From an uncultured Chloroflexia bacterium (GTDB lineage: Bacteria; Chloroflexota; Dehalococcoidia; UBA2979): a stretch of 64,000 nt of DNA. The DNA is taken from the NCBI GenBank assembly GCA_963728205.1, contig CAVSIV010000001.1, positions 928,001 through 992,000 on the forward strand. The letters run 5' to 3'. The notes under the pieces are model-generated. The model was not told the DNA's origin, searched no databases, and saw only the letters and a program-made list of their open reading frames with translations. Position 1 is the first letter of the stretch, and each line of letters begins with the position of its first letter. Position numbers and translations under genes: made by a program. Shown here piece after piece: positions 35,230-57,432 of this stretch.

Positions 35230-36740
35230 CCGCGCCGCGCGACGCCTACGACGTCATCGTGATCGGCGCCGGCAACGCCGCGCTCTGCGCCGCGCTGGCC
35301 GCCCGCGAGGCCGGCGCCCGCGTCGCGGTGCTGGAGAAGGCCACGCGCGAGGAGCGCGGCGGCAACACCTTCTTCACCGGCGGCGGCTTCCGCTTCCCGT
35401 ACAACGGCATCGACGACATTCGCGCCCTGATCCCGGACCTCTCGGAAGAGGAGGTCGCGGGGATCGACGTCGGCTCCTATCCGGCGCCGGCGATGCGTTC
35501 GGACCTGATGCGCGTCACGGAGGGGCTGGCCGACCCCGGCCTCGTCGATCGGCTCGTCGGTGACGCGTACCCGACGGTCCAGTGGATGCGCGAGCGGCTC
35601 GGCATGCGCTGGGTGCTCATGTACGGCCGGCAGGCGTACCGCGTCGGCGACAAGCTCCAGTTCTGGGGCGGAATGATCACCGAGGCGGTCGGGGGCGGCG
35701 AGGGCCTCTCCGACATGCTCTTCCGCGCGGCGGAGGAGCAGGGGGTCGACGTTCGGTACGGGACGAAGGCAGTGTCGCTGATCACCGACCGGCGCGCCGC
35801 GGTGACGGGCCTGCGCGTGCGCGACGACGACGGCTTCGGAGAGCTCCAGGCGGGTGCGGTGGTGATCGCGGCGGGCGGCTTCGAGGCGAACACCGCGATG
35901 CGGACGCAGTATCTCGGAGCCGGGTGGGAGTTCGCCAAGGTCCGTGGTACAAGACATAACACTGGCGATGGCATCAAGATGGCGCTTGAGATAGGCGCCC
36001 AGCCGTACGGCCACTGGTCGAGTGCACACGCCGTGGCCTGGGACTTCAACGCGCCGCCCACCGGCAACCGGCGCATCGGTGATCTCTACCAGAAGCACTC
36101 GTATCCGCTCGGCCTGATCGTGAACATCCGCGGCGAGCGGTTCGTCGACGAGGGCGCGGACCTGCGGAACTACACGTACGCGAAGTACGGCCGAGAGATC
36201 CTGCGTCAGCCGCAGAGCATCGCGTTCCAGCTGTTCGACCAGCAGACGGTAGCGATGCTGCGCGACGAGTACCGCATCCGCGAGGCGACGAAAGCTGAGG
36301 CGGGGACCGTCGGTGAGCTCGCCGACGCGCTGGGCATCGACCGGACGGGGCTCGAGCAGACCGTGGCGGCGTACAACGCCGCGTGCCGGCCGGGGGCGTT
36401 CAACCCGGCCGAGCGCGACGGCCTGCACACGGAGGGAATCGCTCCGCCGAAATCGAACTGGGCGCTGCCGCTGAACCAGCCGCCGTTCGTGGGATACGCG
36501 GTGACGTGCGGCGTGACGTTCACGTTCGGTGGGCTGCGTATCGTGCCGCAGACGGCGCAGGTGCTGGACACCGAGGACCGGCCGATCGCGGGGCTGTACG
36601 CGGCGGGCGAGCTGGTGGGCGGGCTCTTCTTCCACAACTACGCCGGCGGGACCGGCCTGATGGCCGGCTCCGTGTTCGGCCGGCTTGCCGGCGCGTCGGC
36701 CGCGGAGGCCGCGCTGAGGGCGGGGACGCGCACGGTGTAG
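35226..36740 (+). CDS. tcuA: FAD-dependent tricarballylate dehydrogenase-like flavoprotein
   Basis: GAGNAALCAA, RGGN, GGFEAN, RFVDEG, TFTFGGL, GGLFFHNY.GGTGL. Confidence 0.82.
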   Translation: MTAPRDAYDVIVIGAGNAALCAALAAREAGARVAVLEKATREERGGNTFFTGGGFRFPYNGIDDIRALIPDLSEEEVAGIDVGSYPAPAMRSDLMRVTEGLADPGLVDRLVGDAYPTVQWMRERLGMRWVLMYGRQAYRVGDKLQFWGGMITEAVGGGEGLSDMLFRAAEEQGVDVRYGTKAVSLITDRRAAVTGLRVRDDDGFGELQAGAVVIAAGGFEANTAMRTQYLGAGWEFAKVRGTRHNTGDGIKMALEIGAQPYGHWSSAHAVAWDFNAPPTGNRRIGDLYQKHSYPLGLIVNIRGERFVDEGADLRNYTYAKYGREILRQPQSIAFQLFDQQTVAMLRDEYRIREATKAEAGTVGELADALGIDRTGLEQTVAAYNAACRPGAFNPAERDGLHTEGIAPPKSNWALPLNQPPFVGYAVTCGVTFTFGGLRIVPQTAQVLDTEDRPIAGLYAAGELVGGLFFHNYAGGTGLMAGSVFGRLAGASAAEAALRAGTRTV

Positions 36741-36780
36741 GCGCGTGGAGGGCGAGGTGCCCGTCCTCCCCGGCTCCCGG

Positions 36781-36860
36781 CAAGCGGCGGCAGATACGCC
36801 GCCGATTCTGCGCGGCCTCGACGGCCGCGCCGGTATCGGCGGCGTATCCGCCGCCGCTTG
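36781..36860. repeat. Family B element between convergent operons
   Basis: CAAGCGGCGGCAGATACGCCGCCGAT...ATCGGCGGCGTATCCGCCGCCGCTTG. Confidence 0.9.
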
Positions 36861-36916
36861 CGACGGGGCCACGGGGCCGGCGACAGCACACGGCAGGCCT
36901 GAAGCCTGCCGCGCGC

Positions 36917-39366
36917 CTACGCCGTCACCAGGTCGCTCGACGTGACGCCGCCCGCCACCATCGCCGACACCTCGGCGTCGCTGTAGCCGGCCAGCGTCGT
37001 CAGCACCTCGGCGCTGTGCTGCCCGAACTGCGGAGCCGCACGCACGGCCGTGATCGGGCGGCGGCGCATGCGCCAGGTCGGCGCCGTTGTGAGCTGGCGG
37101 CCGGCGTCGGGGTGGTCGTAGGCGATGAACGCGTCGCGAACGAGCAGGTGCGCGTCCGTCGTCGCGAGCAGCGGCGTGAGCACCGGCGAGGCGGCCACGC
37201 CGGCGGCCTGCAGCGCGTCGGCCGCGTCGTCGGGGTCGCGCGTCGACGTCCACTCCGCGATCACCGCGTCGATCGCGTCCTGCGCCGCGCGGCGGCCATC
37301 GGCCGTCGCGTACGCCGGGTCGTCCAGCCGCGCGTCGCGCGATCACGCCGCGCAGCGCGCGCCACGCGTCGTCGGAGTCGACCGCGATCGCCACCCAGCG
37401 ACTCGTGAACTCGCGCAGCACGTTGCCCAGCGGGCCGACGGACTGCCGCACCGGGCCGTCGGCGGCGGGGTAGACGTTGTGCGGCGCGAAGAGCGCGTCG
37501 CGGCTGCCGATGCGCACGGGGAGCGGCACGCCGAGCGCCTGCGCGATCACGTACTCGCCGACGAGCCCGATGATGCCGTCGCGCTGGGGGACCATCGCGT
37601 AGACCCCGTGGCCGGTGCGCTCGCGCGCGACCAGCGCCACGCCGACCGCCGCGGCCGCCGTGACGCCCGCGACCGGGTCGCCGTACGAGATGCCGCTGCG
37701 GTGTGGCGGGCCGCCGGGGTAGCCCTGCAGCGCCACGAGGCCGCCCATCTGCTCGATCGACGGCCCGAAGCCGACACGCGCCGCGTCGTTGCCGCGGTGG
37801 CCGAACCCCGGCATCGACACGCAGATCAGCCGCGGGTTGAGGGCGCGCAGGTCCTCGTATCCGAGCCCCAGCCGCTCGGCGACGCCGCTGCTCCAGTTCT
37901 CGACGAACACGTCGGCGTCTGCGAGCAGGCGCCTGATCGCCTCGATGCCCTCGGGTCGCTGAAGGTCGAGCGTGATGCCGCGCTTGTTGCGGTTGTACTC
38001 GTTGAAGTAGGCGCTGAGGTTGATGTCGGGCGCGCTCGTCGCGCCGGCCATCGTGCGGATGCCGTCGGGGAACGCGGGTCCCTCGATCTTGATCACATCG
38101 GCGCCCATGTCGCCGAGGAGGCGCGTCGCATAGGGACCCGCCCAGATCTGCGTGACGTCGATCACACGGATGCCGTCGAAGGGGAGCGCAGGCGCCGCTG
38201 TGCCGGCCGGGGCCGCCGGCGTGGCGACGGGGGGCGCGCCCGCCGCCACGAGCTCCGCGCGCATGGCCTCGGTGTGCTCGCCGACGAGCGGGCCGCGCGC
38301 GTGCTCGCCGCGATCGCCGTCGAACTCGATCGGCCCCGCGGGCAGCGGGTGGCGGCCGAGCACGGGGTGATCGACCCAGCGCCAGAAGCCCGTCCCGACG
38401 AGCGCCGGCCATTCGAGCAACTCGCGCGGCGTCGGGATCAACGTCATCGGCGCGCGGAACTTCGCGGCCTCCGCGAAGATCTCGTGCGCCGCGCGCGTGC
38501 TCGCCCATTCCGGCAGCAGCACCGACATCAGCTCGTTGCCCTCGACCGACCAGCCGTTCGCGACGGCGGGGTCGTCCTTGAACTCCGGGTGGCCGATGCA
38601 CGTCGTAGACGGCGCCCGTCTGCCGCGGCATCGCGGCGACGCCCACGTAGCCGTCGGCGCAGGCGTGGATGCCCCACTGCGCGAACGTCTGATTGCCGTT
38701 CGGGCCGGCCTCGCTGCCGCGGGTCAGCGCGTTCGGCCCGGCGCCCTCCAGCGTCGCGACCTGCACCTCCTGGATCGAGATGTCGAGCACGTCGCCGATG
38801 CCGGTGCGACGCGCGGCGAACAGCGCGGCCGCGGTGGCGCCGAACGCGTGCAGCCCGGCCTGGTAGTAGGCCTGGTGGCCGGCGGTCTTCAGCGGCGGCA
38901 GGTCCGGGTCGCCGCACATGCCCATCTGTCCGCCCGCCGCGGCGGCGGTGAGCGCGGTCGCGCGCCACTGCGTGTGCGGGCCGGTCTGGCCGAACGGGGT
39001 GATCCGGCAGACGACCAGCGACGCGCGCGCGTCGGCGAGCGCGTCGAGGTCGATCCCGCGCGCGGCGAGCGCGCCCGGCGCGTGCGAGTCAATCACGATC
39101 TCCGCGCGCGCGAGCAGCGCGTCGAGCGTCGCGCGATCCGCGGGGTCGTCGAGGTCGAGGGCGACGCTGCGCTTGCCGGCGTGCAGGTAGGCGGCGAGCA
39201 CGCCGGCGTCGGGGCCGTCGCCCGCGTGCGGCGGGAGGTGGCGGATGGGGTGCCCGCCCGGCGGCTCGACGACGACGACATCGGCGCCGTACGCGCGCAG
39301 GAGGCGGCCGGCGAACGCGCCGGCGACGTCGGTGCTGAGCTCCACGACGCGGCAGCCATCGAGCAT
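36917..39366 (-). CDS. Tandem two-domain family III CoA-transferase, with 1-nt frameshifts near 38601 and 37338
   Basis: Domain 1 MLDGCRVVEL..GHQAYYQAG; domain 2 IRVIDVTQIWAGP..SYGDPVAG; the frames join cleanly across single-base indels. Confidence 0.85.
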
Positions 39367-39406
39367 GGGTGGGTCCTTTCGTAGTGGTATCCGCGACGCC
39401 GCCACC

Positions 39407-39491
39407 GCGGCGGCAGATACGCCGCCGACAGCACGCGGACGCAAGTCCGCGGCTGCCGCCGCGGGTCTGTCGGCGGCATGTCTGCCGCCGC
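39407..39491. repeat. Family B REPIN-like element
   Basis: Arms as in other B copies; spacer closely resembles the 18957 copy. Confidence 0.9.
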
Positions 39492-39671
39492 TGTGGCGGC
39501 GTGTCCGCCGCGGCGCGGTGGTGTCCGCCGCAGCGCGGTCGTGGCACGCGAGCGCGTCCGGCAGGGCGCGCTCCCGCCGCGCGCCGCATGGTAGCAACCC
39601 GCCCGCCGGACACGAACCAGCCCCCGGCGTGCCGAGGGCTGGTAGGCGATCGCGTCGCGTCGCGCCGAGGG

Positions 39672-40214
39672 CTACGCCCGGGCGAAGCCGTAGTCGAGCG
39701 TCGACGACAGGTCGAAGAACCGCTGCAGGCTCGGGTTGTAGCGGAAGAACATGTCCGCCTTGAACCCGTCGTCCAGGTAGTTCTTGTGGATGGGGTCGTC
39801 GAAGCGCAGGTCGAGCGTGTTCAGCGTCCACTCCTGCGTGGCGTGGCCGTTCTTCTTGATGTCCTGGAGCATCGACTTCCAGTGCTCGGGGGAGAGCTCC
39901 ACGACGAAGTCCGCGTCGCGGAGGCGGTTCTCCGATACTTCGCGCACGTCGTGGATGTCGAGCACGTCGAAGTTCGCCTCGATCAGCTTCTCGCCGATCT
40001 TGAAGACGACGACCGCGTTGAGCCGGCCGAACTTGCGGTAGCCCTCGTCCTGCTTCGCGACGTCGCCGAGCTTCTGGAACCATTCAACGGACGGGAAGTT
40101 GAGCTTCTTCGTCGCGGCGGCCGGCTTCTTTGCCGCGGCGCGGGTCGTCGTCTTCGCCGCCGCCTTCGCGGGCGCCTTGCGGCTGGTGGTCGTGCTCGTG
40201 CTCTTCGTCGGCAT
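39672..40214 (-). CDS. Hypothetical protein, SCP2 (sterol carrier)-like, with a Lys/Ala-rich N-terminal tail
   Basis: FPSVEWF start, ADFVVEL...W pattern typical of SCP2-like folds; strong coding bias. Confidence 0.55.
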   Translation of the reverse strand: MPTKSTSTTTSRKAPAKAAAKTTTRAAAKKPAAATKKLNFPSVEWFQKLGDVAKQDEGYRKFGRLNAVVVFKIGEKLIEANFDVLDIHDVREVSENRLRDADFVVELSPEHWKSMLQDIKKNGHATQEWTLNTLDLRFDDPIHKNYLDDGFKADMFFRYNPSLQRFFDLSSTLDYGFARA

Positions 40215-40247
40215 CAGTGCCCCTTTACGGTTGCGTGCTGCAGCAGG

Positions 40248-40550
40248 TTAGAAGTCGATCGGCTTCCCGGGGTCCTTCGCCGCGTCGAACGGCGTCATCT
40301 TGGCGAGGTGACGCATCGGCTCGGCCTCGGGGGTCTTCGCCATCTGGTCCTCGACCATGCGCTTGTACATGGGGTCGAGGGAGCGGATGGCGTCCAGCTC
40401 ATTGTGCGTGACCGCGAAGGCCGAGACCTTGCGGGCGATGTTGGACTTGCCGCAGAACTCGCACTTCGTGGGCTCCTCGCGGCGCGGGGGCCGGATCAGC
40501 ACCTCGAAGGTCGCCTTGCAGTCGGCGCACTGGTACGTGTGAAGCGGCAT
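40248..40550 (-). CDS. FmdB-family zinc-ribbon protein
   Basis: MPLHTYQCADC..FEVL..CEFCG....RKVSAF. Confidence 0.88.
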   Translation of the reverse strand: MPLHTYQCADCKATFEVLIRPPRREEPTKCEFCGKSNIARKVSAFAVTHNELDAIRSLDPMYKRMVEDQMAKTPEAEPMRHLAKMTPFDAAKDPGKPIDF

Positions 40551-40576
40551 GTTCGATCCGATCTCGCCGTGGCGGG

Positions 40577-41656
40577 CTACGCCGCGGCGGTTTCACCTTC
40601 GGCCAGCAGCATCCGGAACGGCCGGATCAGCTGCTCGCCGCGCTCGAGGCCGACGGAGCGGCAGTGGCTGAGGTATGCGCGCATCCAGTCGCGCTGGAGG
40701 CGCCGGACGACCTGCATCCCTTCGTCCATGCCCTTCACGCCGCCGCCGAAGATGACGGCAAGCGCTTCCCAGAGCACGGGGTCGGCCGCGTCGCGGGCCT
40801 GCGCGGCCTCGACGTTCGTCAGCCAGATCGCGAAGCCGGCGCGCTGCTCGGGCCGAGCGGCGATGGCCGTGCGGATGTGATCCATGGCGTAGGCGAGGGT
40901 GCGCATGCGGTCCGGGATCATGCGCGTCGCCAGCACGCGGTCGGCCTCGGTCGGGCCGTACGCGGCGAGGTAGCGCAGGATCGCGGTCTGCAGCGAGCCG
41001 CGCAGGAACCAGAGGCCGAGCACGGTCTGCGACCAGCCGGCGTACGTCTCCATGATCGCGCGGTTCATGCGGCCGGGGCTCTCCAGCAGCATGCCGCCGC
41101 CGTTGACCATCGCGCGCTTGCGGTAGCCCTCGAAGAGCCGCGCCGCGTCGTACACGCCGGTCGAGAGGAAGAGCTTCACCTCGTGGTAGCCGGGGCTGAG
41201 GTTCTGCAGCCAGCCGGAGACGACCTCGGCCTCGATCGAGCCCTCCTGCGAGAGCTCGGTCGCGACCTGGCAGATCGCGATCTCGACGTCGTCGGGCAGG
41301 CCGTGCGCGGTCTCCCACGGGACGTCGGTCGCGGTCGACCAGCGGCGCGAGATGCCCTCCTCGTAGAGCTGGCCGGCGCAGTCGGCCCACTGCTCGTACT
41401 TCTCCTGGAGGTAGTAGCCGCCGATGGAGCCGGCGATGGGTGACGGGTAGGCGCCGCGCGGCCAGCGGTTGCGGTACTGGATGCGGTCGGGAATCTCGGA
41501 GTAGACGCCCACGTTGAGGGCGTCGATCGTGAGCCCGCCGCCGTGCTCGAAGTCGGGACGCGCGCGGATGCCCCAGCCGATGGTCTTGTCCATCCAGCTG
41601 AGGTCGGGCATCGGCGGCGCCTGCGGCGCACCATCCTGGGCGGTTGCCTGGACCAT
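40577..41656 (-). CDS. Ferritin-like protein, paralog of the upstream gene lacking diiron ligands
   Basis: Shares LYEE..RWS..D.PWET..LPDD.E.A.CQ and RKR..NGGG; ExxH motifs replaced by DAARL and DRMRT. Confidence 0.8.
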   Translation of the reverse strand: MVQATAQDGAPQAPPMPDLSWMDKTIGWGIRARPDFEHGGGLTIDALNVGVYSEIPDRIQYRNRWPRGAYPSPIAGSIGGYYLQEKYEQWADCAGQLYEEGISRRWSTATDVPWETAHGLPDDVEIAICQVATELSQEGSIEAEVVSGWLQNLSPGYHEVKLFLSTGVYDAARLFEGYRKRAMVNGGGMLLESPGRMNRAIMETYAGWSQTVLGLWFLRGSLQTAILRYLAAYGPTEADRVLATRMIPDRMRTLAYAMDHIRTAIAARPEQRAGFAIWLTNVEAAQARDAADPVLWEALAVIFGGGVKGMDEGMQVVRRLQRDWMRAYLSHCRSVGLERGEQLIRPFRMLLAEGETAAA

Positions 41657-41754
41657 TCGTGTCCCCTCCAGGGAGGGCCCCATCGTGGGGGCCACACACA
41701 GCGGACGCCGCCCCTCGCGTGGTGCGGGGGAGCGGCGTCCGAGCGGATCAGTGG

Positions 41755-42891
41755 TTACGCGGCGAGGTACTGCTGCAGCGCGGAGTTGGCGCGACCGTTC
41801 TCGAACCGGTCGCCGAGGCCGGCCACCTTCACGCGCTGGATGTACTCCTTGACCTGGCGCTGCCGCACCGCCGTGGCGATCTTCTCGCCCTCCGACATCG
41901 ACGCGGCGTCCGACCCGCCGCCGAGCAGGATCGCCAGCGCGGCGTTCGACGGCGTCCCGCGCGTCGCGGGGTTCTGCCCGCCGCTGCCGGCGACGAGGCC
42001 CATCTCGATCTCGTCGAGGTACGAGTGGATCTCCTCGCGGCGCTCCGGGTCCGTCTGCGCGAGGTACTGCAGGTGCATCACGCCGAAGGCGACGTGGCGC
42101 GACTCGTCCGACGCCGCGAGGCGGTAGATCGCCTTCTCCGCGTCGTTGTAGGACATGCGCTCGCCCATCCGGAAGATCGAGAGCACGAGACCCTCGCCGG
42201 AGATGTGCAGGCGGGCCGACATCTCCGTGAAGTCGCGGGCGGAGTCGATGGCGCCGCCGGCCAGCGCCGCGTTCGACGTCTGCATCAGCAGGCCGCCGCC
42301 GTTGGCGAAGGTGCGCTTGCGGAAGACGTCGAGGTGGCGCGCCTCGTCCATGATCTGCGAGATCAGGAACATGCGCGGCTCGTAGTAGTCCGGGCTCGTC
42401 TCCGAGATCCACTTGCCCGGGACGTCACCGGCGACGAACTCGACCTCGGTGAGGAACGTCGTGAGCTGGCACTCGGCGCGCTCGATGTCGTCGGGGAGCT
42501 CCTCGAGGGTCTCCCACGGGATGTCGACCGCGGACGACCACTGGCGCTGCACGGCCTCCTCGTAGAGCTGGGAGGCGTTGCGCAGCCAGATGTCCGACTT
42601 CGTGCGGACCGAGTAGTTGCCGACCTTCGGGGCGGTGGGGCGCACGAGCGAGCCGCGCGGGCGGCCCGTCATGTTGTCGCTCCAGTCCGGGATCTGGGCG
42701 TACGGGCCCTTGTCGATGTCCTGCAGGAGGACGCCCTCACCCTTCGCGCCGTCGGCGCGCAGCCCGAACGTCTCGCGGGCCGTCAGCCAGTCCAGCTTGT
42801 ACCCGCGCGAGCGCCCGTACTCGAGGAGCGACTCGTAAGCGGTCTTCTGAGATGTGGACTGTGACTGATCGGGCCGCGTCTCGGTCGCCAT
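41755..42891 (-). CDS. Ferritin-like diiron-carboxylate protein (putative oxygenase catalytic subunit)
   Basis: TEVEF...DEARH...GEG...DESRH: canonical E/ExxH/E/ExxH set. Confidence 0.88.
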   Translation of the reverse strand: MATETRPDQSQSTSQKTAYESLLEYGRSRGYKLDWLTARETFGLRADGAKGEGVLLQDIDKGPYAQIPDWSDNMTGRPRGSLVRPTAPKVGNYSVRTKSDIWLRNASQLYEEAVQRQWSSAVDIPWETLEELPDDIERAECQLTTFLTEVEFVAGDVPGKWISETSPDYYEPRMFLISQIMDEARHLDVFRKRTFANGGGLLMQTSNAALAGGAIDSARDFTEMSARLHISGEGLVLSIFRMGERMSYNDAEKAIYRLAASDESRHVAFGVMHLQYLAQTDPERREEIHSYLDEIEMGLVAGSGGQNPATRGTPSNAALAILLGGGSDAASMSEGEKIATAVRQRQVKEYIQRVKVAGLGDRFENGRANSALQQYLAA

Positions 42892-43005
42892 ACGCTCTCC
42901 TGCTTTCGTGTCTGCGATGTTCGATCGGCTGCTGGTGCAGGGCCGCCGCTGAGGTCGCCGTCAGCGCGCGTACACCGTCAACGAACGTAGTCGTTCGAGG
43001 GCGTC

Positions 43006-43034
43006 AACATACAGTGTGTATGCAAGGCTGTCAA
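43006..43034 (-). promoter_or_regulatory. sigma70 promoter of the diiron operon with an operator palindrome in the spacer
   Basis: Minus strand TTGACA-17 bp-TATGTT; CATACA-GTG-TGTATG at 43008-43022. Confidence 0.8.
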
Positions 43035-43504
43035 CGAACACGTGCGTGGCCGGCGGGCGCCGCCAACAGGTTGGGACCGGCCGTCGCGCGGCACGTGGGG
43101 CGAGGGCGGTGGCAGGCATCGCGCGCGCCCGAGAGGCGGGTCGCGAGTCGCGCGAAGGCGGCCGGCGGCGACCACTGCGAGATGCGTACGACGGTGCCGC
43201 CGCGGTCCGGCGCGAGCGTGACCTCGACGATCGCGTCGCGCTCGTCGTCGCGGCTGCCGCCGCTCGTGGCGTGCCAGCGCACGCGGCGCGGAGCTTCGCG
43301 CTCGATCACCTCGCCGAGGCGCACGACACGCGGCTCCACGCCGGGGAAGCGAGCGGGGTCGGTGACGTAGTCGAAGACCTCCTCGGGTGGCGCGTCGACG
43401 CGCACCTCGACCTGCAGCTCCGGCACGTCGTCGACGGCGGTGCGTGGCGACTCGTCGCGCCGGTCGTCCGGGCCGGCGGGGGCGTCGTGCTCGTCGTGTG
43501 CCAT
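43031..43504 (-). CDS. SRPBCC/AHSA1 domain protein (3' end uncertain)
   Basis: VDAPPEEVFDYVTDP, GEV..EAPRRV.W, VEVTL..GGTVV; coupled to the ArsR gene. Confidence 0.75.
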   Translation of the reverse strand: MAHDEHDAPAGPDDRRDESPRTAVDDVPELQVEVRVDAPPEEVFDYVTDPARFPGVEPRVVRLGEVIEREAPRRVRWHATSGGSRDDERDAIVEVTLAPDRGGTVVRISQWSPPAAFARLATRLSGARDACHRPRPTCRATAGPNLLAAPAGHARVR

Positions 43505-43857
43505 CAGGCGTCTCCCTTCGCGGCGCCCGGTCCGCCGCCGCGCGCGGGTCGCGGCGGCGACGCCAGGTCGTCCTTCATGCGCGCCAGCGCGGCGCTCCAG
43601 AACCCCTCGACCTCGTCGCGCAGGCGGGCGAGGCCCTCCGGCGCGGCGTGGTACACGCGACGCCGCCCGTCGGGCGTCGCCGCCACGAGTCCGGCGTCGC
43701 GCAGCACGCGCAGGTGCTGCGACACCGCCGGCTGCGACAGCGCGACGCGCTCCACGATCTCGCCGACGGAGCGCTCGCGCTCGCAGAGCAGGCGATAGAT
43801 CGCGCGTCGGCTGGGGTCGCCCAGCGCGTCGAGCGGGTCGGTGGCGTCCTCGTGCAT
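43504..43857 (-). CDS. ArsR/SmtB family transcriptional regulator
   Basis: ALGDPSRR.I, SQPAVSQHLRVLRDAGLV, GRRRVY. Confidence 0.92.
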   Translation of the reverse strand: MHEDATDPLDALGDPSRRAIYRLLCERERSVGEIVERVALSQPAVSQHLRVLRDAGLVAATPDGRRRVYHAAPEGLARLRDEVEGFWSAALARMKDDLASPPRPARGGGPGAAKGDA

Positions 43858-43877
43858 GCCGACATGATATCGCGCTA

Positions 43878-43891
43878 CACTTATATAAGTG
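43878..43891. promoter_or_regulatory. Perfect palindrome, likely ArsR operator between arsR and clpP
   Basis: CACTTATATAAGTG in a 70-bp AT-rich divergent intergenic region. Confidence 0.75.
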
Positions 43892-43927
43892 CACACGAAT
43901 GTGTAATGCAGGCGGAGGAGGCAGGCG

Positions 43928-44578
43928 ATGAACGACAGCTCGACGGGGCGGCCGCGGGCGGTGGTGCCGATGGTGGTGGAGGCCGGTCCGCGCGGCGAGC
44001 GCGCCTACGACATCTACTCGCTGTTGCTGAAGGAGCGCGTCGTCATCCTCGGCACCGAGGTGACGTCCGAGGTCGCGAACGCGATCGTCGCGCAGCTGCT
44101 CTACCTCGACCGCGAGGACGCGGACAAGGACGTCTCGCTCTACATCCACTCGCCGGGCGGCGAGGTATACGCGGGGCTGGCGATCATCGACACGATGCAA
44201 CTGATCCGCGCGGACGTCTCGACGATCGCGGTCGGTTTCACGGCGTCGATGGGCACCGCCGTGCTGGCGGCCGGCGCGCGCGGCAAGCGGTTCGCGCTGC
44301 CGAGCGCGACGATCCACTACCACCCGGCGCTCGGCGGCGCGCAGGGGGGCGCGCGCGACGTCGAGATCCGCGCGCAGGAGCTGCTGCGGCTGAACCGCCG
44401 CCTGCGCGAGCTGCTCGCCGAGCGCACCGGCCGCCCGTTCGACGAGATCGCGCGCGACTTCGACCGCGATCACTTCATGGATGCGTACGAGGCGAAGGAG
44501 TACGGGCTCGTGGACGCGGTGCTCGAGCAGACGACGGTCGAGAGCCGGCGCACGGCCGGCTTCCAGCGGGCCGGGTGA
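43928..44578 (+). CDS. clpP: ATP-dependent Clp protease proteolytic subunit
   Basis: [23 protein letters not shown] (Ser), HYHP (His), DRDHFM (Asp). Confidence 0.93.
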
Positions 44579-47058: not shown

Positions 47059-47142
47059 TGGTGCCGGGGCTGGGATTCGAACCCAGATGCCTTGCGGCCG
47101 CGGGGTTTAAGCCCGCTGCGTCTGCCATTCCGCCACCCCGGC
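47059..47142 (-). tRNA. tRNA-Leu (TAA)
   Basis: GCCGGGG acceptor stem, GCGGG-CTTAAAC-CCCGC anticodon arm, variable arm, GTTCGAATC, CCA. Confidence 0.95.
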
Positions 47143-57046: not shown

Positions 57047-57120
<74 letters not shown>

Positions 57121-57145
57121 CGGGTGCGGCGCCGGGCGAGGGGGA

Positions 57146-57220
57146 TGGAGCGGAAGACGAGGGTCGAACTCGCGACCTCCTCCTTGGCAAGGAGGCGCTC
57201 TACCACTGAGCTACTTCCGC
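57146..57220 (-). tRNA. tRNA-Gly (GCC)
   Basis: GCGGAAG..TTGCCAA..GTTCGACC..CCA. Confidence 0.96.
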
Positions 57221-57254
57221 GTCGCAACCATCCATCCGGCGTCCCAGAGGTGAG

Positions 57255-57341
57255 TGGTGCCCAGGATGAGATTTGAACTCATACGCCCTTTCGGGCACTG
57301 CCCCCTCAAGACAGCGTGTCTGCCGATTCCACCACCTGGGC
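57255..57341 (-). tRNA. tRNA-Leu (GAG)
   Basis: GCCCAGG..TTGAGGG..variable arm..GTTCAAATC..CCA. Confidence 0.95.
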
Positions 57342-57355
57342 CCCGAGTGACCGCC

Positions 57356-57432
57356 TGGCAGGAGTGGAGGGATTCGAACCCCCGGCCTGCGGTTTTGGAG
57401 ACCGCTGCTCTAACCAGCTGAGCTACACTCCT
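57356..57432 (-). tRNA. tRNA-Trp (CCA)
   Basis: AGGAGTG..CTCCAAA..GTTCGAATC..CCA. Confidence 0.96.

Follow-up and report, generated by a model that had tools for sequence, protein, structure and literature searches.

What kind of enzyme does the A-B-Zn-S operon of this uncultured Chloroflexia bacterium encode? The operon lies on the minus strand of the window, by which we mean the whole 64,000-nt stretch of DNA that was analysed and to which all positions refer; the genome (G000) has 4.1 Mb and a completeness of 89%. Its four genes encode a ferritin-like protein (A), a paralog of A (B), an FmdB-type zinc-ribbon protein (Zn) and a protein with an SCP2 fold (S), and their coordinates are collected in Table 1. 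The G+C content of the window is high (70–78% in 2-kb bins, about 73% apart from a dip to 61% at 58–60 kb), so codon-position G+C was used to choose the real reading frames. The genes are separated by 98 nt (A/B), 26 nt (B/Zn) and 33 nt (Zn/S), and A-B-Zn-S therefore looks like one transcription unit. We conclude that it probably encodes a soluble multicomponent oxygenase that has not been described before, belongs to the ferritin-like dimetal-carboxylate superfamily and acts on a hydrophobic substrate; the unnamed family and the set of partners would be new, whereas the kind of enzyme is known. The initial annotation had proposed an alpha/beta oxygenase, epoxidase or desaturase for an acyl- or aryl-CoA. 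Every element it described is present, among them the promoter, the full ligand set of A, the altered paralog, the FmdB-type protein and the tandem CoA-transferase, and its interpretation is partly supported: the alpha/beta oxygenase gains from a paralog pair outside the curated families, a recurring gene order and a predicted docking of S, but the acyl- or aryl-CoA substrate is weak.

Protein A carries the motifs DEARH (residues 182–186) and DESRH (262–266) together with E151 and E233, which makes E151, E183, H186, E233, E263 and H266 its dimetal ligand set. In alignment A2, none of the 14 A-type sequences deviates at any of the six ligands. In a broader alignment of 53 family members (A1), in which E151, E183, H186, E263 and H266 were checked, these five are kept together in 24 rows and at least one is lost in 29. 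The AlphaFold model of A (pLDDT 90.3) has the larger R2-type fold, beyond a simple four-helix bundle, and its nearest Foldseek matches are ribonucleotide reductase (RNR) R2, R2lox, VlmB and PaaA (TM 0.4–0.68), all of them O2-activating or radical-generating dimetal proteins. F190, four residues past H186, is nearly invariant in the family alignment and stands at what we take to be the site of the radical tyrosine of RNR R2. The basic, glycine-rich loop that begins here follows the first ExxH helix and is conserved in metal-binding and ligand-less paralogs alike; K192 and R193 are nearly invariant and G198 is invariant. An N-terminal arm of about 100 aa contains the conserved pair R79-G80.

In sequence, all relatives of known structure are distant. 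A phmmer search of the PDB with A alone found nothing significant (best E 0.042); a profile of the 53 family members reached the VlmB homologue 6d9f/8wvr at E 1.8e-10 and R2lox at E 7.6e-6, and in the R2lox match the E/ExxH/E/ExxH set of A aligned with the ligand helices. Neither A nor B reached any Pfam or NCBIfam cut-off. The best sub-threshold scores of A were 34.2 bits for R2lox (cut-off 194), 11 for AurF PF11583 (gathering score 29.6) and 14 for DUF455 (34.3); against the three R2lox equivalogs NF006200, NF006202 and NF006198 it scored 34.2 vs 194, 17.8 vs 315 and 11 vs 274 bits. PaaA_PaaC PF05138 did not match A or B at E <= 1, Phenol_Hydrox did not match either, the PDB profile reached phenol hydroxylase only at E 0.44–0.47, and RNR R2 PF00268 matched two of the 53 relatives at E <= 0.01 and A not at all. 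The lack of soluble methane monooxygenase (sMMO)/phenol hydroxylase and PaaA/PaaC motifs noted at the outset, and the assignment to an uncharacterised family, agree with the Pfam, PDB-profile and Foldseek comparisons. Since VlmB, R2lox, R2 and PaaA are only distantly related to it and no curated family includes it, the A family forms a branch of its own within the dimetal-carboxylate superfamily.

A and B show 29% identity over 329 residues (E 6e-47) and have in common the blocks LYEE..RWS..PWET..LPDD..CQ and RKR..NGGG. In B five of the six metal ligands are replaced, the ExxH motifs having given way to DAARL and DRMRT, and the residues at the six ligand positions of A are G, A, L, G, R and T. 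We computed a FastTree phylogeny of 77 A-type and 42 B-type sequences, typed by their ligand content. The A/B label requires two changes on this tree, as low a number being found in none of 500 shuffles, and one of the two is due to an artefactual ORF at locus L068. B therefore stems from essentially one old duplication, with the B-types lying almost wholly on one side of the tree, as expected of an old pair of catalytic and ligand-less paralogs. At the level of genes, a B-type paralog is adjacent to a catalytic subunit in about 44 of the 81 sources described below, which is the arrangement of PaaA and PaaC. The sMMO and phenol/toluene hydroxylases likewise consist of alpha/beta paralogs with metal only in alpha, and by analogy B is presumed to be a structural, non-catalytic subunit. 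These multicomponent monooxygenases differ from the present system in several respects: they show no significant sequence relation to A (phenol hydroxylase, E 0.44), their subunit has about 500 aa as opposed to about 378 in A, and neither a gamma subunit nor a Rieske protein nor a reductase is encoded here. Several long B-type members carry repeated helical N-terminal extensions.

S consists of a Lys/Ala/Thr-rich N-terminal tail of about 38 aa followed by an SCP2-fold domain. No Pfam family matched it at E <= 1, SCP2 PF02036 included, and none of 40 homologues matched Pfam SCP2 at E <= 0.1. Its SCP2-like identity, suggested initially, is clear at the level of the fold: in a Foldseek search with the AlphaFold model (pLDDT 89.5) SCP2 proteins stood on top (1wfr, E 2e-4; 2cx7, E 3.4e-4, TMt 0.69, the TMt range being 0.67–0.69; 3bn8), UbiJ-SCP2 6h6o also matched (E 1.2e-2), and an Atlas neighbour cluster of S is automatically named 'putative SCP2 domain-containing protein'.

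When A and S were modelled together, the median ipSAE was 0.83, and the best of three controls scored 0.00. The mark applied to this score is reached by 58 of 80 solved complexes and by two of 110 mismatched pairs, both counts applying only roughly because own alignments were used for the A+S model. The runs had at least 87% of contacts in common with a partner pLDDT of at least 90, and the score supports binding without proving it. On A the predicted interface comprises residues 237–272 and 341–356, around E263 and R265, on the helices carrying E233 and E263/H266; on S it comprises residues 124–164, including D149, R158 and Q164, three of the seven columns of S with the highest conservation. 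The interface columns of A are more conserved than the rest of the protein (entropy 1.17 vs 1.59 bits), whereas the equivalent columns of B are less conserved than the rest of B (2.18 vs 1.92 bits). We take these helices, which hold the third and fourth ligand motifs, to be the face on which effector proteins such as MmoB/DmpM dock in bacterial multicomponent monooxygenases; S itself differs from those effectors in its SCP2 fold and has no MmoB_DmpM Pfam match. No fused form of S was found among longer proteins at E <= 1e-5, which is weak evidence. A lipid-binding protein as partner is also reminiscent of ubiquinone-type systems: the UbiJ/UbiT proteins resemble S through 6h6o, and COQ7 and COQ9 form a pair of diiron hydroxylase and separate lipid-binding protein. 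COQ9 is not known to have an SCP2 fold, and COQ7 is a smaller, membrane-associated four-helix protein of no sequence relation to A. COQ9 is reported to present the hydrophobic substrate to COQ7 (bioRxiv 10.1101/2021.11.15.468694).

We then examined gene linkage in 81 sources, namely 80 related loci and the window; S, Zn and a recurrent small ferredoxin were sought with HMMs built from the loci. The counts of architectures are approximate and were corrected by hand, some strings being distorted by over-long ORF calls: the 'B' of L068 is an ORF holding an S domain, L019, L065 and L076 contain gene-order artefacts, A of L021 is untyped and L092 is too short. The order A-B-Zn-S was found in about 11 loci of Dehalococcoidia, the window included, A-B-S-S-Zn in about eight loci of Gammaproteobacteria and some Dehalococcoidia, and A-S followed by the ferredoxin (A-S-Fd) in about 15 loci of Actinomycetes, Binatia, 'delta' and gamma lineages. 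A-S and S-A(-B) also recur; A-B alone occurs in about 22 loci and A alone in 11, two of these at contig edges; relatives of Tepidiforma are among the carriers of A-B loci (L050). S stands beside A in 47 of the 81 sources, and the loci of A or A-B lacking S show that it is not always linked. Of five genomes in which the fetched locus contained just A-B, four encode S elsewhere; the fifth is a 1.6-Mb partial metagenome-assembled genome (MAG). The gene order is therefore conserved beyond this genome, and failure to recur, which would have spoken against the initial proposal, was not seen. Identities between the window and loci L018, L027 and L037 were 76, 57 and 60% for A, 69, 42 and 40% for B, 66, 38 and 31% for Zn and 50, 39 and 41% for S, so that A is the slowest-evolving of the four. 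The neighbours are largely of a catabolic kind: short-chain dehydrogenases/reductases in 19 loci, luciferase-like monooxygenases in 15 and CoA-transferases in 22, with enoyl-CoA hydratases (ECH), acyl-CoA dehydrogenases (ACAD) and a thiolase with a ChsH2-type OB protein as further ones.

Zn passes the cut-offs of Pfam Zn_ribbon_8 PF09723 (38.4 vs 34.4 bits) and TIGR02605 FmdB (42 vs 31.3). Of 16 aligned orthologues, 15 retain the CxxC...CxxC pattern, the exception being L038 with C-CG as its second pair; the C-terminal tail LDPxY..MV(D/E) is conserved in this alignment, and no relative of Zn was found in the PDB (best E 0.17). An hhalign comparison of S with Zn served as a null control. Zn was found in 16 of the 81 sources (17 with L021, by tblastn), always together with B, and a 2[4Fe-4S] ferredoxin immediately follows A-S in 15, none of which has B; as one occurs only with B and the other only without it, the two patterns are inseparable from phylogeny. 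Because Zn stands where the ferredoxin stands in other lineages, it may be guessed to be a rubredoxin-like relay; its restriction to loci with B would fit a B-associated structural factor equally well. At their C-terminus, the ferredoxins of the actinobacterial loci L070, L075–L078 and L080–L082 are extended by about 70 aa that contain additional Cys pairs (C..GCPL, CPxCG, CxxC and CPK), and in this extension the Zn HMM detected no homology (E <= 10, filters off, best 0.35).

R2lox is among the known proteins closest to A in fold and setting. Its structures (PDB 4hr0, 3ee4) show the ferritin-like R2-type fold and the E/ExxH/E/ExxH pattern of A. R2lox binds fatty acids, and a Mn/Fe cofactor and a Tyr-Val ether cross-link are further hallmarks of it. 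Haloarchaeal R2lox genes are reported to lie close to ferredoxin and sterol-carrier genes, as in the A-S-Fd loci, and to be hexadecane-induced (PMC9314684), and an R2lox of Geobacillus is reported to hydroxylate alkanes (PMC10867098). The two families are nevertheless remote, as the profile match (E 7.6e-6), the equivalog score (34.2 vs 194 bits) and TM values of about 0.5–0.68 indicate. A has in addition the N-terminal arm with R79-G80 and the FRKRxxxNGGG loop, and the accessible parts of the sources on R2lox mention neither a ligand-less paralog nor an FmdB zinc-ribbon partner.

The ligand set, the relatives, F190, the ferredoxin linked in one lineage, the docking of an SCP2 partner and the catabolic neighbours together lead us to an O2-activating oxygenase for a hydrophobic substrate. 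In such a mechanism A would bind a diiron (or Mn/Fe) centre, activate O2 and hydroxylate or epoxidise a hydrophobic aliphatic substrate, either an alkyl or an acyl chain and perhaps esterified to CoA. S would dock on the helices carrying E233 and E263/H266 and hand over or gate the substrate, and B, the ancient ligand-less paralog, may be the structural partner of A, as PaaC is for PaaA or the beta subunit in sMMO. Electrons would come from the ferredoxin in the A-S-Fd loci, and in the A-B-Zn-S loci from an unlinked donor, perhaps via the four-Cys Zn protein; as first noted, no ferredoxin or reductase gene belongs to the operon.

A related possibility is an enzyme like PaaABC(D)E that epoxidises or hydroxylates a CoA thioester and in which A would correspond to PaaA, B to PaaC and Zn to PaaD, S would bind an acyl-CoA and the CoA-transferase would make the substrate. 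The pair of a catalytic diiron subunit and a ligand-less paralog, accompanied by small accessory proteins, parallels PaaA/PaaC; PaaA (3pvr_A) is among the Foldseek matches of A (E 2e-3, TM 0.44/0.54), Zn has a weak sub-threshold match to Zn_ribbon_PaaD (E 0.051, 13.7 bits vs a cut-off of 27), and the FRKRxxxNGGG loop of A and B could, as a speculation, bind phosphates. Against this, PF05138 is not matched, neither a PaaB-like nor a PaaE-like gene is present in the operon, and the accessory protein here has an SCP2 fold. Much depends on the CoA-transferase, which is real (PF02515 E of its three pieces 3.6e-57, 1.3e-87 and 6.8e-11); it begins 305 nt past S, and its inclusion in the transcription unit is less sure. 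A CoA-transferase within about 8 kb occurs in 22 of the 81 loci, at varying positions; ECH, ACAD and thiolase genes are also found as neighbours. Family III CoA-transferases have undergone a very large paralog expansion in G000 (77 PF02515 matches in 4.1 Mb), and chance alone would therefore place one in roughly a quarter of all 16-kb stretches (about 24% as estimated from gene density). The acyl- or aryl-CoA substrate, which had been deduced from this neighbour, is possible but weak, and we consider the CoA-thioester enzyme as a whole rather unlikely.

Translation of the CoA-transferase gene itself takes three frames: a +1 break interrupts each of the two domains, near 38595 and near 37335, at corresponding positions that immediately precede the (P)E/L..DDP motif (about Pfam model position 240–267). 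The breaks are probably indel errors of the long-contig assembly, but the gene may instead be a pseudogene. Contigs from four sequencing runs gave short, mostly divergent pieces that neither bridged nor settled the two breaks, and in six DNA sequencing runs only 5–7% of the sampled words were found; no RNA run was among those listed. Other CoA-transferase genes of G000 are also frame-broken (e.g. G000:C5:14150-14300). In one of them, at G000:C6:1316870-1317080, the same loop contains about seven copies of a 30-nt tandem repeat encoding Gly/Ala/Pro-rich peptide units, with a frame change inside the array.

A biosynthetic enzyme of the VlmB/AurF/'protein 60' kind, forming N-oxygenated, N–N or azoxy products, deformylating aldehydes or acting as a desaturase, appears improbable. 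The best PDB sequence relative is indeed the VlmB homologue, matched over the two ExxH helices, whose entries are titled azoxy synthase (8wvr/6d9f) and 'aldehyde deformylating oxidase activity'; six of the 53 family members match AurF at E <= 0.01, and in one Atlas neighbour cluster 50% of the members carry AurF. However, A remains at 11 bits against the AurF cut-off of 29.6, VlmB shows only about 20% identity and TM 0.43–0.54 and belongs to a natural-product context, and the recurrent neighbour clusters contain no NRPS, PKS, tRNA-dependent or amino-acid-modifying genes. The conserved partners are instead the SCP2 protein and the ferredoxin, which to our knowledge are not parts of VlmB or AurF systems, and we know of no B, S or Zn partners of VlmB.

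A non-oxygenase complex that binds a ligand, regulates, handles iron or reduces peroxide, in which the dimetal site and the four-Cys protein would detoxify peroxide or sense lipid, is likewise improbable, even though a dimetal four-helix core with a separate four-Cys protein presumably echoes the domain make-up of rubrerythrin and no reductase is linked here, because the fold of A is the larger R2-type, Rubrerythrin and ferritin Pfam models do not match it at E <= 1, and the predicted docking of SCP2 on the ligand helices and the catabolic neighbourhoods fit substrate oxidation better. The near fold relative R2lox, which according to PMC9314684 still has no agreed substrate, is a further point in favour of such a complex.

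Several observations weigh against the oxygenase that we favour. Nine loci away from contig edges have A alone, and 20 were scored as lacking S next to A-B, the L068 entry among them being an ORF-calling artefact. The operon at this locus contains no reductase or ferredoxin gene, the CoA-transferase adjacency is at about chance level in G000, and the window genome has three copies of A (100, 81 and 77% identity) against single copies of B, Zn and S; the two extra copies of A have no B, Zn or S nearby, and they keep all ligands and L237. The pattern at position 237 of A, which in itself speaks for the pairing with S (Leu in 45 of 45 sequences that have an S in the fetched locus, Gln in 27 of the 34 that lack one), is confounded by phylogeny, as is the complementarity of Zn and ferredoxin. 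The interface columns of S are only marginally more conserved than the rest (1.97 vs 2.22 bits, one-sided p 0.085). The function of R2lox is itself disputed; VlmB, the closest solved sequence relative, carries out N–N/N–O chemistry and no C–H hydroxylation; and no activity, metal content or ligand has been reported for any family member.

The promoter TTGACA-17-TATGTT, described initially in front of A, is the only site of its type in positions 36500–44200 (7.7 kb; shuffles average 0.2). Three 10-nt direct repeats cover its -35 and -10 elements and the early leader. The exact 10-mer has seven copies in the genome against about 2.5 expected, two of the seven being at the A promoter, and from the sequence the repeats could be an operator. 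A riboswitch in the leader of A is unlikely, as an Rfam search of the window matched five tRNAs and nothing else and the folding of the 109-nt leader is on a par with that of its shuffles (z 0.22). An ArsR-like and an SRPBCC/AHSA1-like gene lie directly upstream of the promoter, with a ClpP-like gene divergent from them.

Table 1. Features of the operon, its flanking DNA and the additional copies of A (window positions unless a genome contig is given)
Feature	Position	Strand	Basis
A, 378-aa ferritin-like protein, presumed catalytic subunit	41755..42891	-	ligand set, AlphaFold, Foldseek
B, 359-aa A paralog, presumed non-catalytic structural subunit	40577..41656	-	start is the ATG behind GGAGG
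Zn, 100-aa FmdB-type CxxC...CxxC zinc-ribbon protein	40248..40550	-	above both curated cut-offs
S, 180-aa SCP2-fold protein	39672..40214	-	AlphaFold model and Foldseek
Tandem (two-domain) family III CoA-transferase	36917..39366	-	PF02515; unit membership uncertain
Basic Gly-rich loop F/Y-R-K-R-x3-N-G-G-G	A residues 190-200 (~42290-42325); B ~41085-41120	-	alignment
Sigma-70-like promoter TTGACA-17-TATGTT	43006..43034	-	10/12 consensus matches, 5' of A
Three 10-nt direct repeats GTTCGTTGAC, GTATGTTGAC, GTTCGTTGAC (coding strand), possible operator	42977..43039	-	spaced 26-27 nt
ArsR-like regulator gene and SRPBCC/AHSA1-like gene	43031-43896	-	SRPBCC by Pfam; ArsR by eye
ClpP-like gene	43928-44578	+	by eye
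Single tRNA gene	47062-47142	-	Rfam
Cluster of four tRNA genes	57050-57432	-	Rfam
Extra A copies, full length, 81% and 77% identical	G000:C6:188623-189759; C6:1536660-1537796		genome search

Regarding the size of the family, 1840 clusters at 90% identity and 738 representatives at 50% identity pass E 0.001, the former among 8000 candidates scored. Among the best 120 of the 1840 clusters, no name other than 'hypothetical' or 'ferritin-like domain-containing' occurs, and precomputed Pfam domains are absent. Among the matches listed, A orthologues of Dehalococcoidia and Chloroflexota MAGs are 66–91% identical. The MAGs of the related loci are labelled Dehalococcoidia/Chloroflexota, Gammaproteobacteria/Pseudomonadales, Binatia, Actinomycetes/Acidimicrobiia (among them one Mycobacterium sp.), 'delta proteobacteria' and Latescibacterota. 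Within the order to which the window belongs a match was found in 42 of 99 genomes, in 22 of 48 high-quality genomes and in 13 of 21 genera; in an even sample of the phylum, the B query matched in seven of 301 genomes. Literature searches returned no relevant paper on the family, and the matches listed bear no source names.

Some members of alignment A1 match further Pfam models, seven of the 53 TusA and one SnoaL_2. Five long members carry N-terminal extensions with a common xWCRxxGH-like motif; four of them have the full ligand set, and P0241 is without three of the five checked ligands. No C-x-x-P-type motif was found by regular expression in the long members.

Soluble dimetal-carboxylate oxygenases carry out some of the hardest oxidations in biology, and few multicomponent architectures of them are known. 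The operon belongs to a large, strongly conserved family for which no curated model exists and in which an SCP2 protein, a ligand-less paralog and a zinc ribbon or ferredoxin recur as partners. The oxygenase proposed here can be drawn in bolder terms, as a widespread soluble dimetal hydroxylase with an SCP2 protein as both effector and conduit and with an iron-binding, rubredoxin-like FmdB relay, attacking unactivated C–H bonds of alkanes, alicyclics or isoprenoids in uncultured Dehalococcoidia, Binatia, Actinomycetota and Gammaproteobacteria. We regard this extended version as tentative and in its entirety doubtful; if the iron-binding relay were true, the FmdB family would gain its first defined role. 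If the proteins do form an oxygenase, they would represent a new system for the oxidation of hydrophobic substrates in abundant uncultured soil and marine lineages. They would also offer a tractable test of how a lipid-carrier fold may feed a dimetal site, and may explain part of the puzzling chemistry of R2lox-type proteins.

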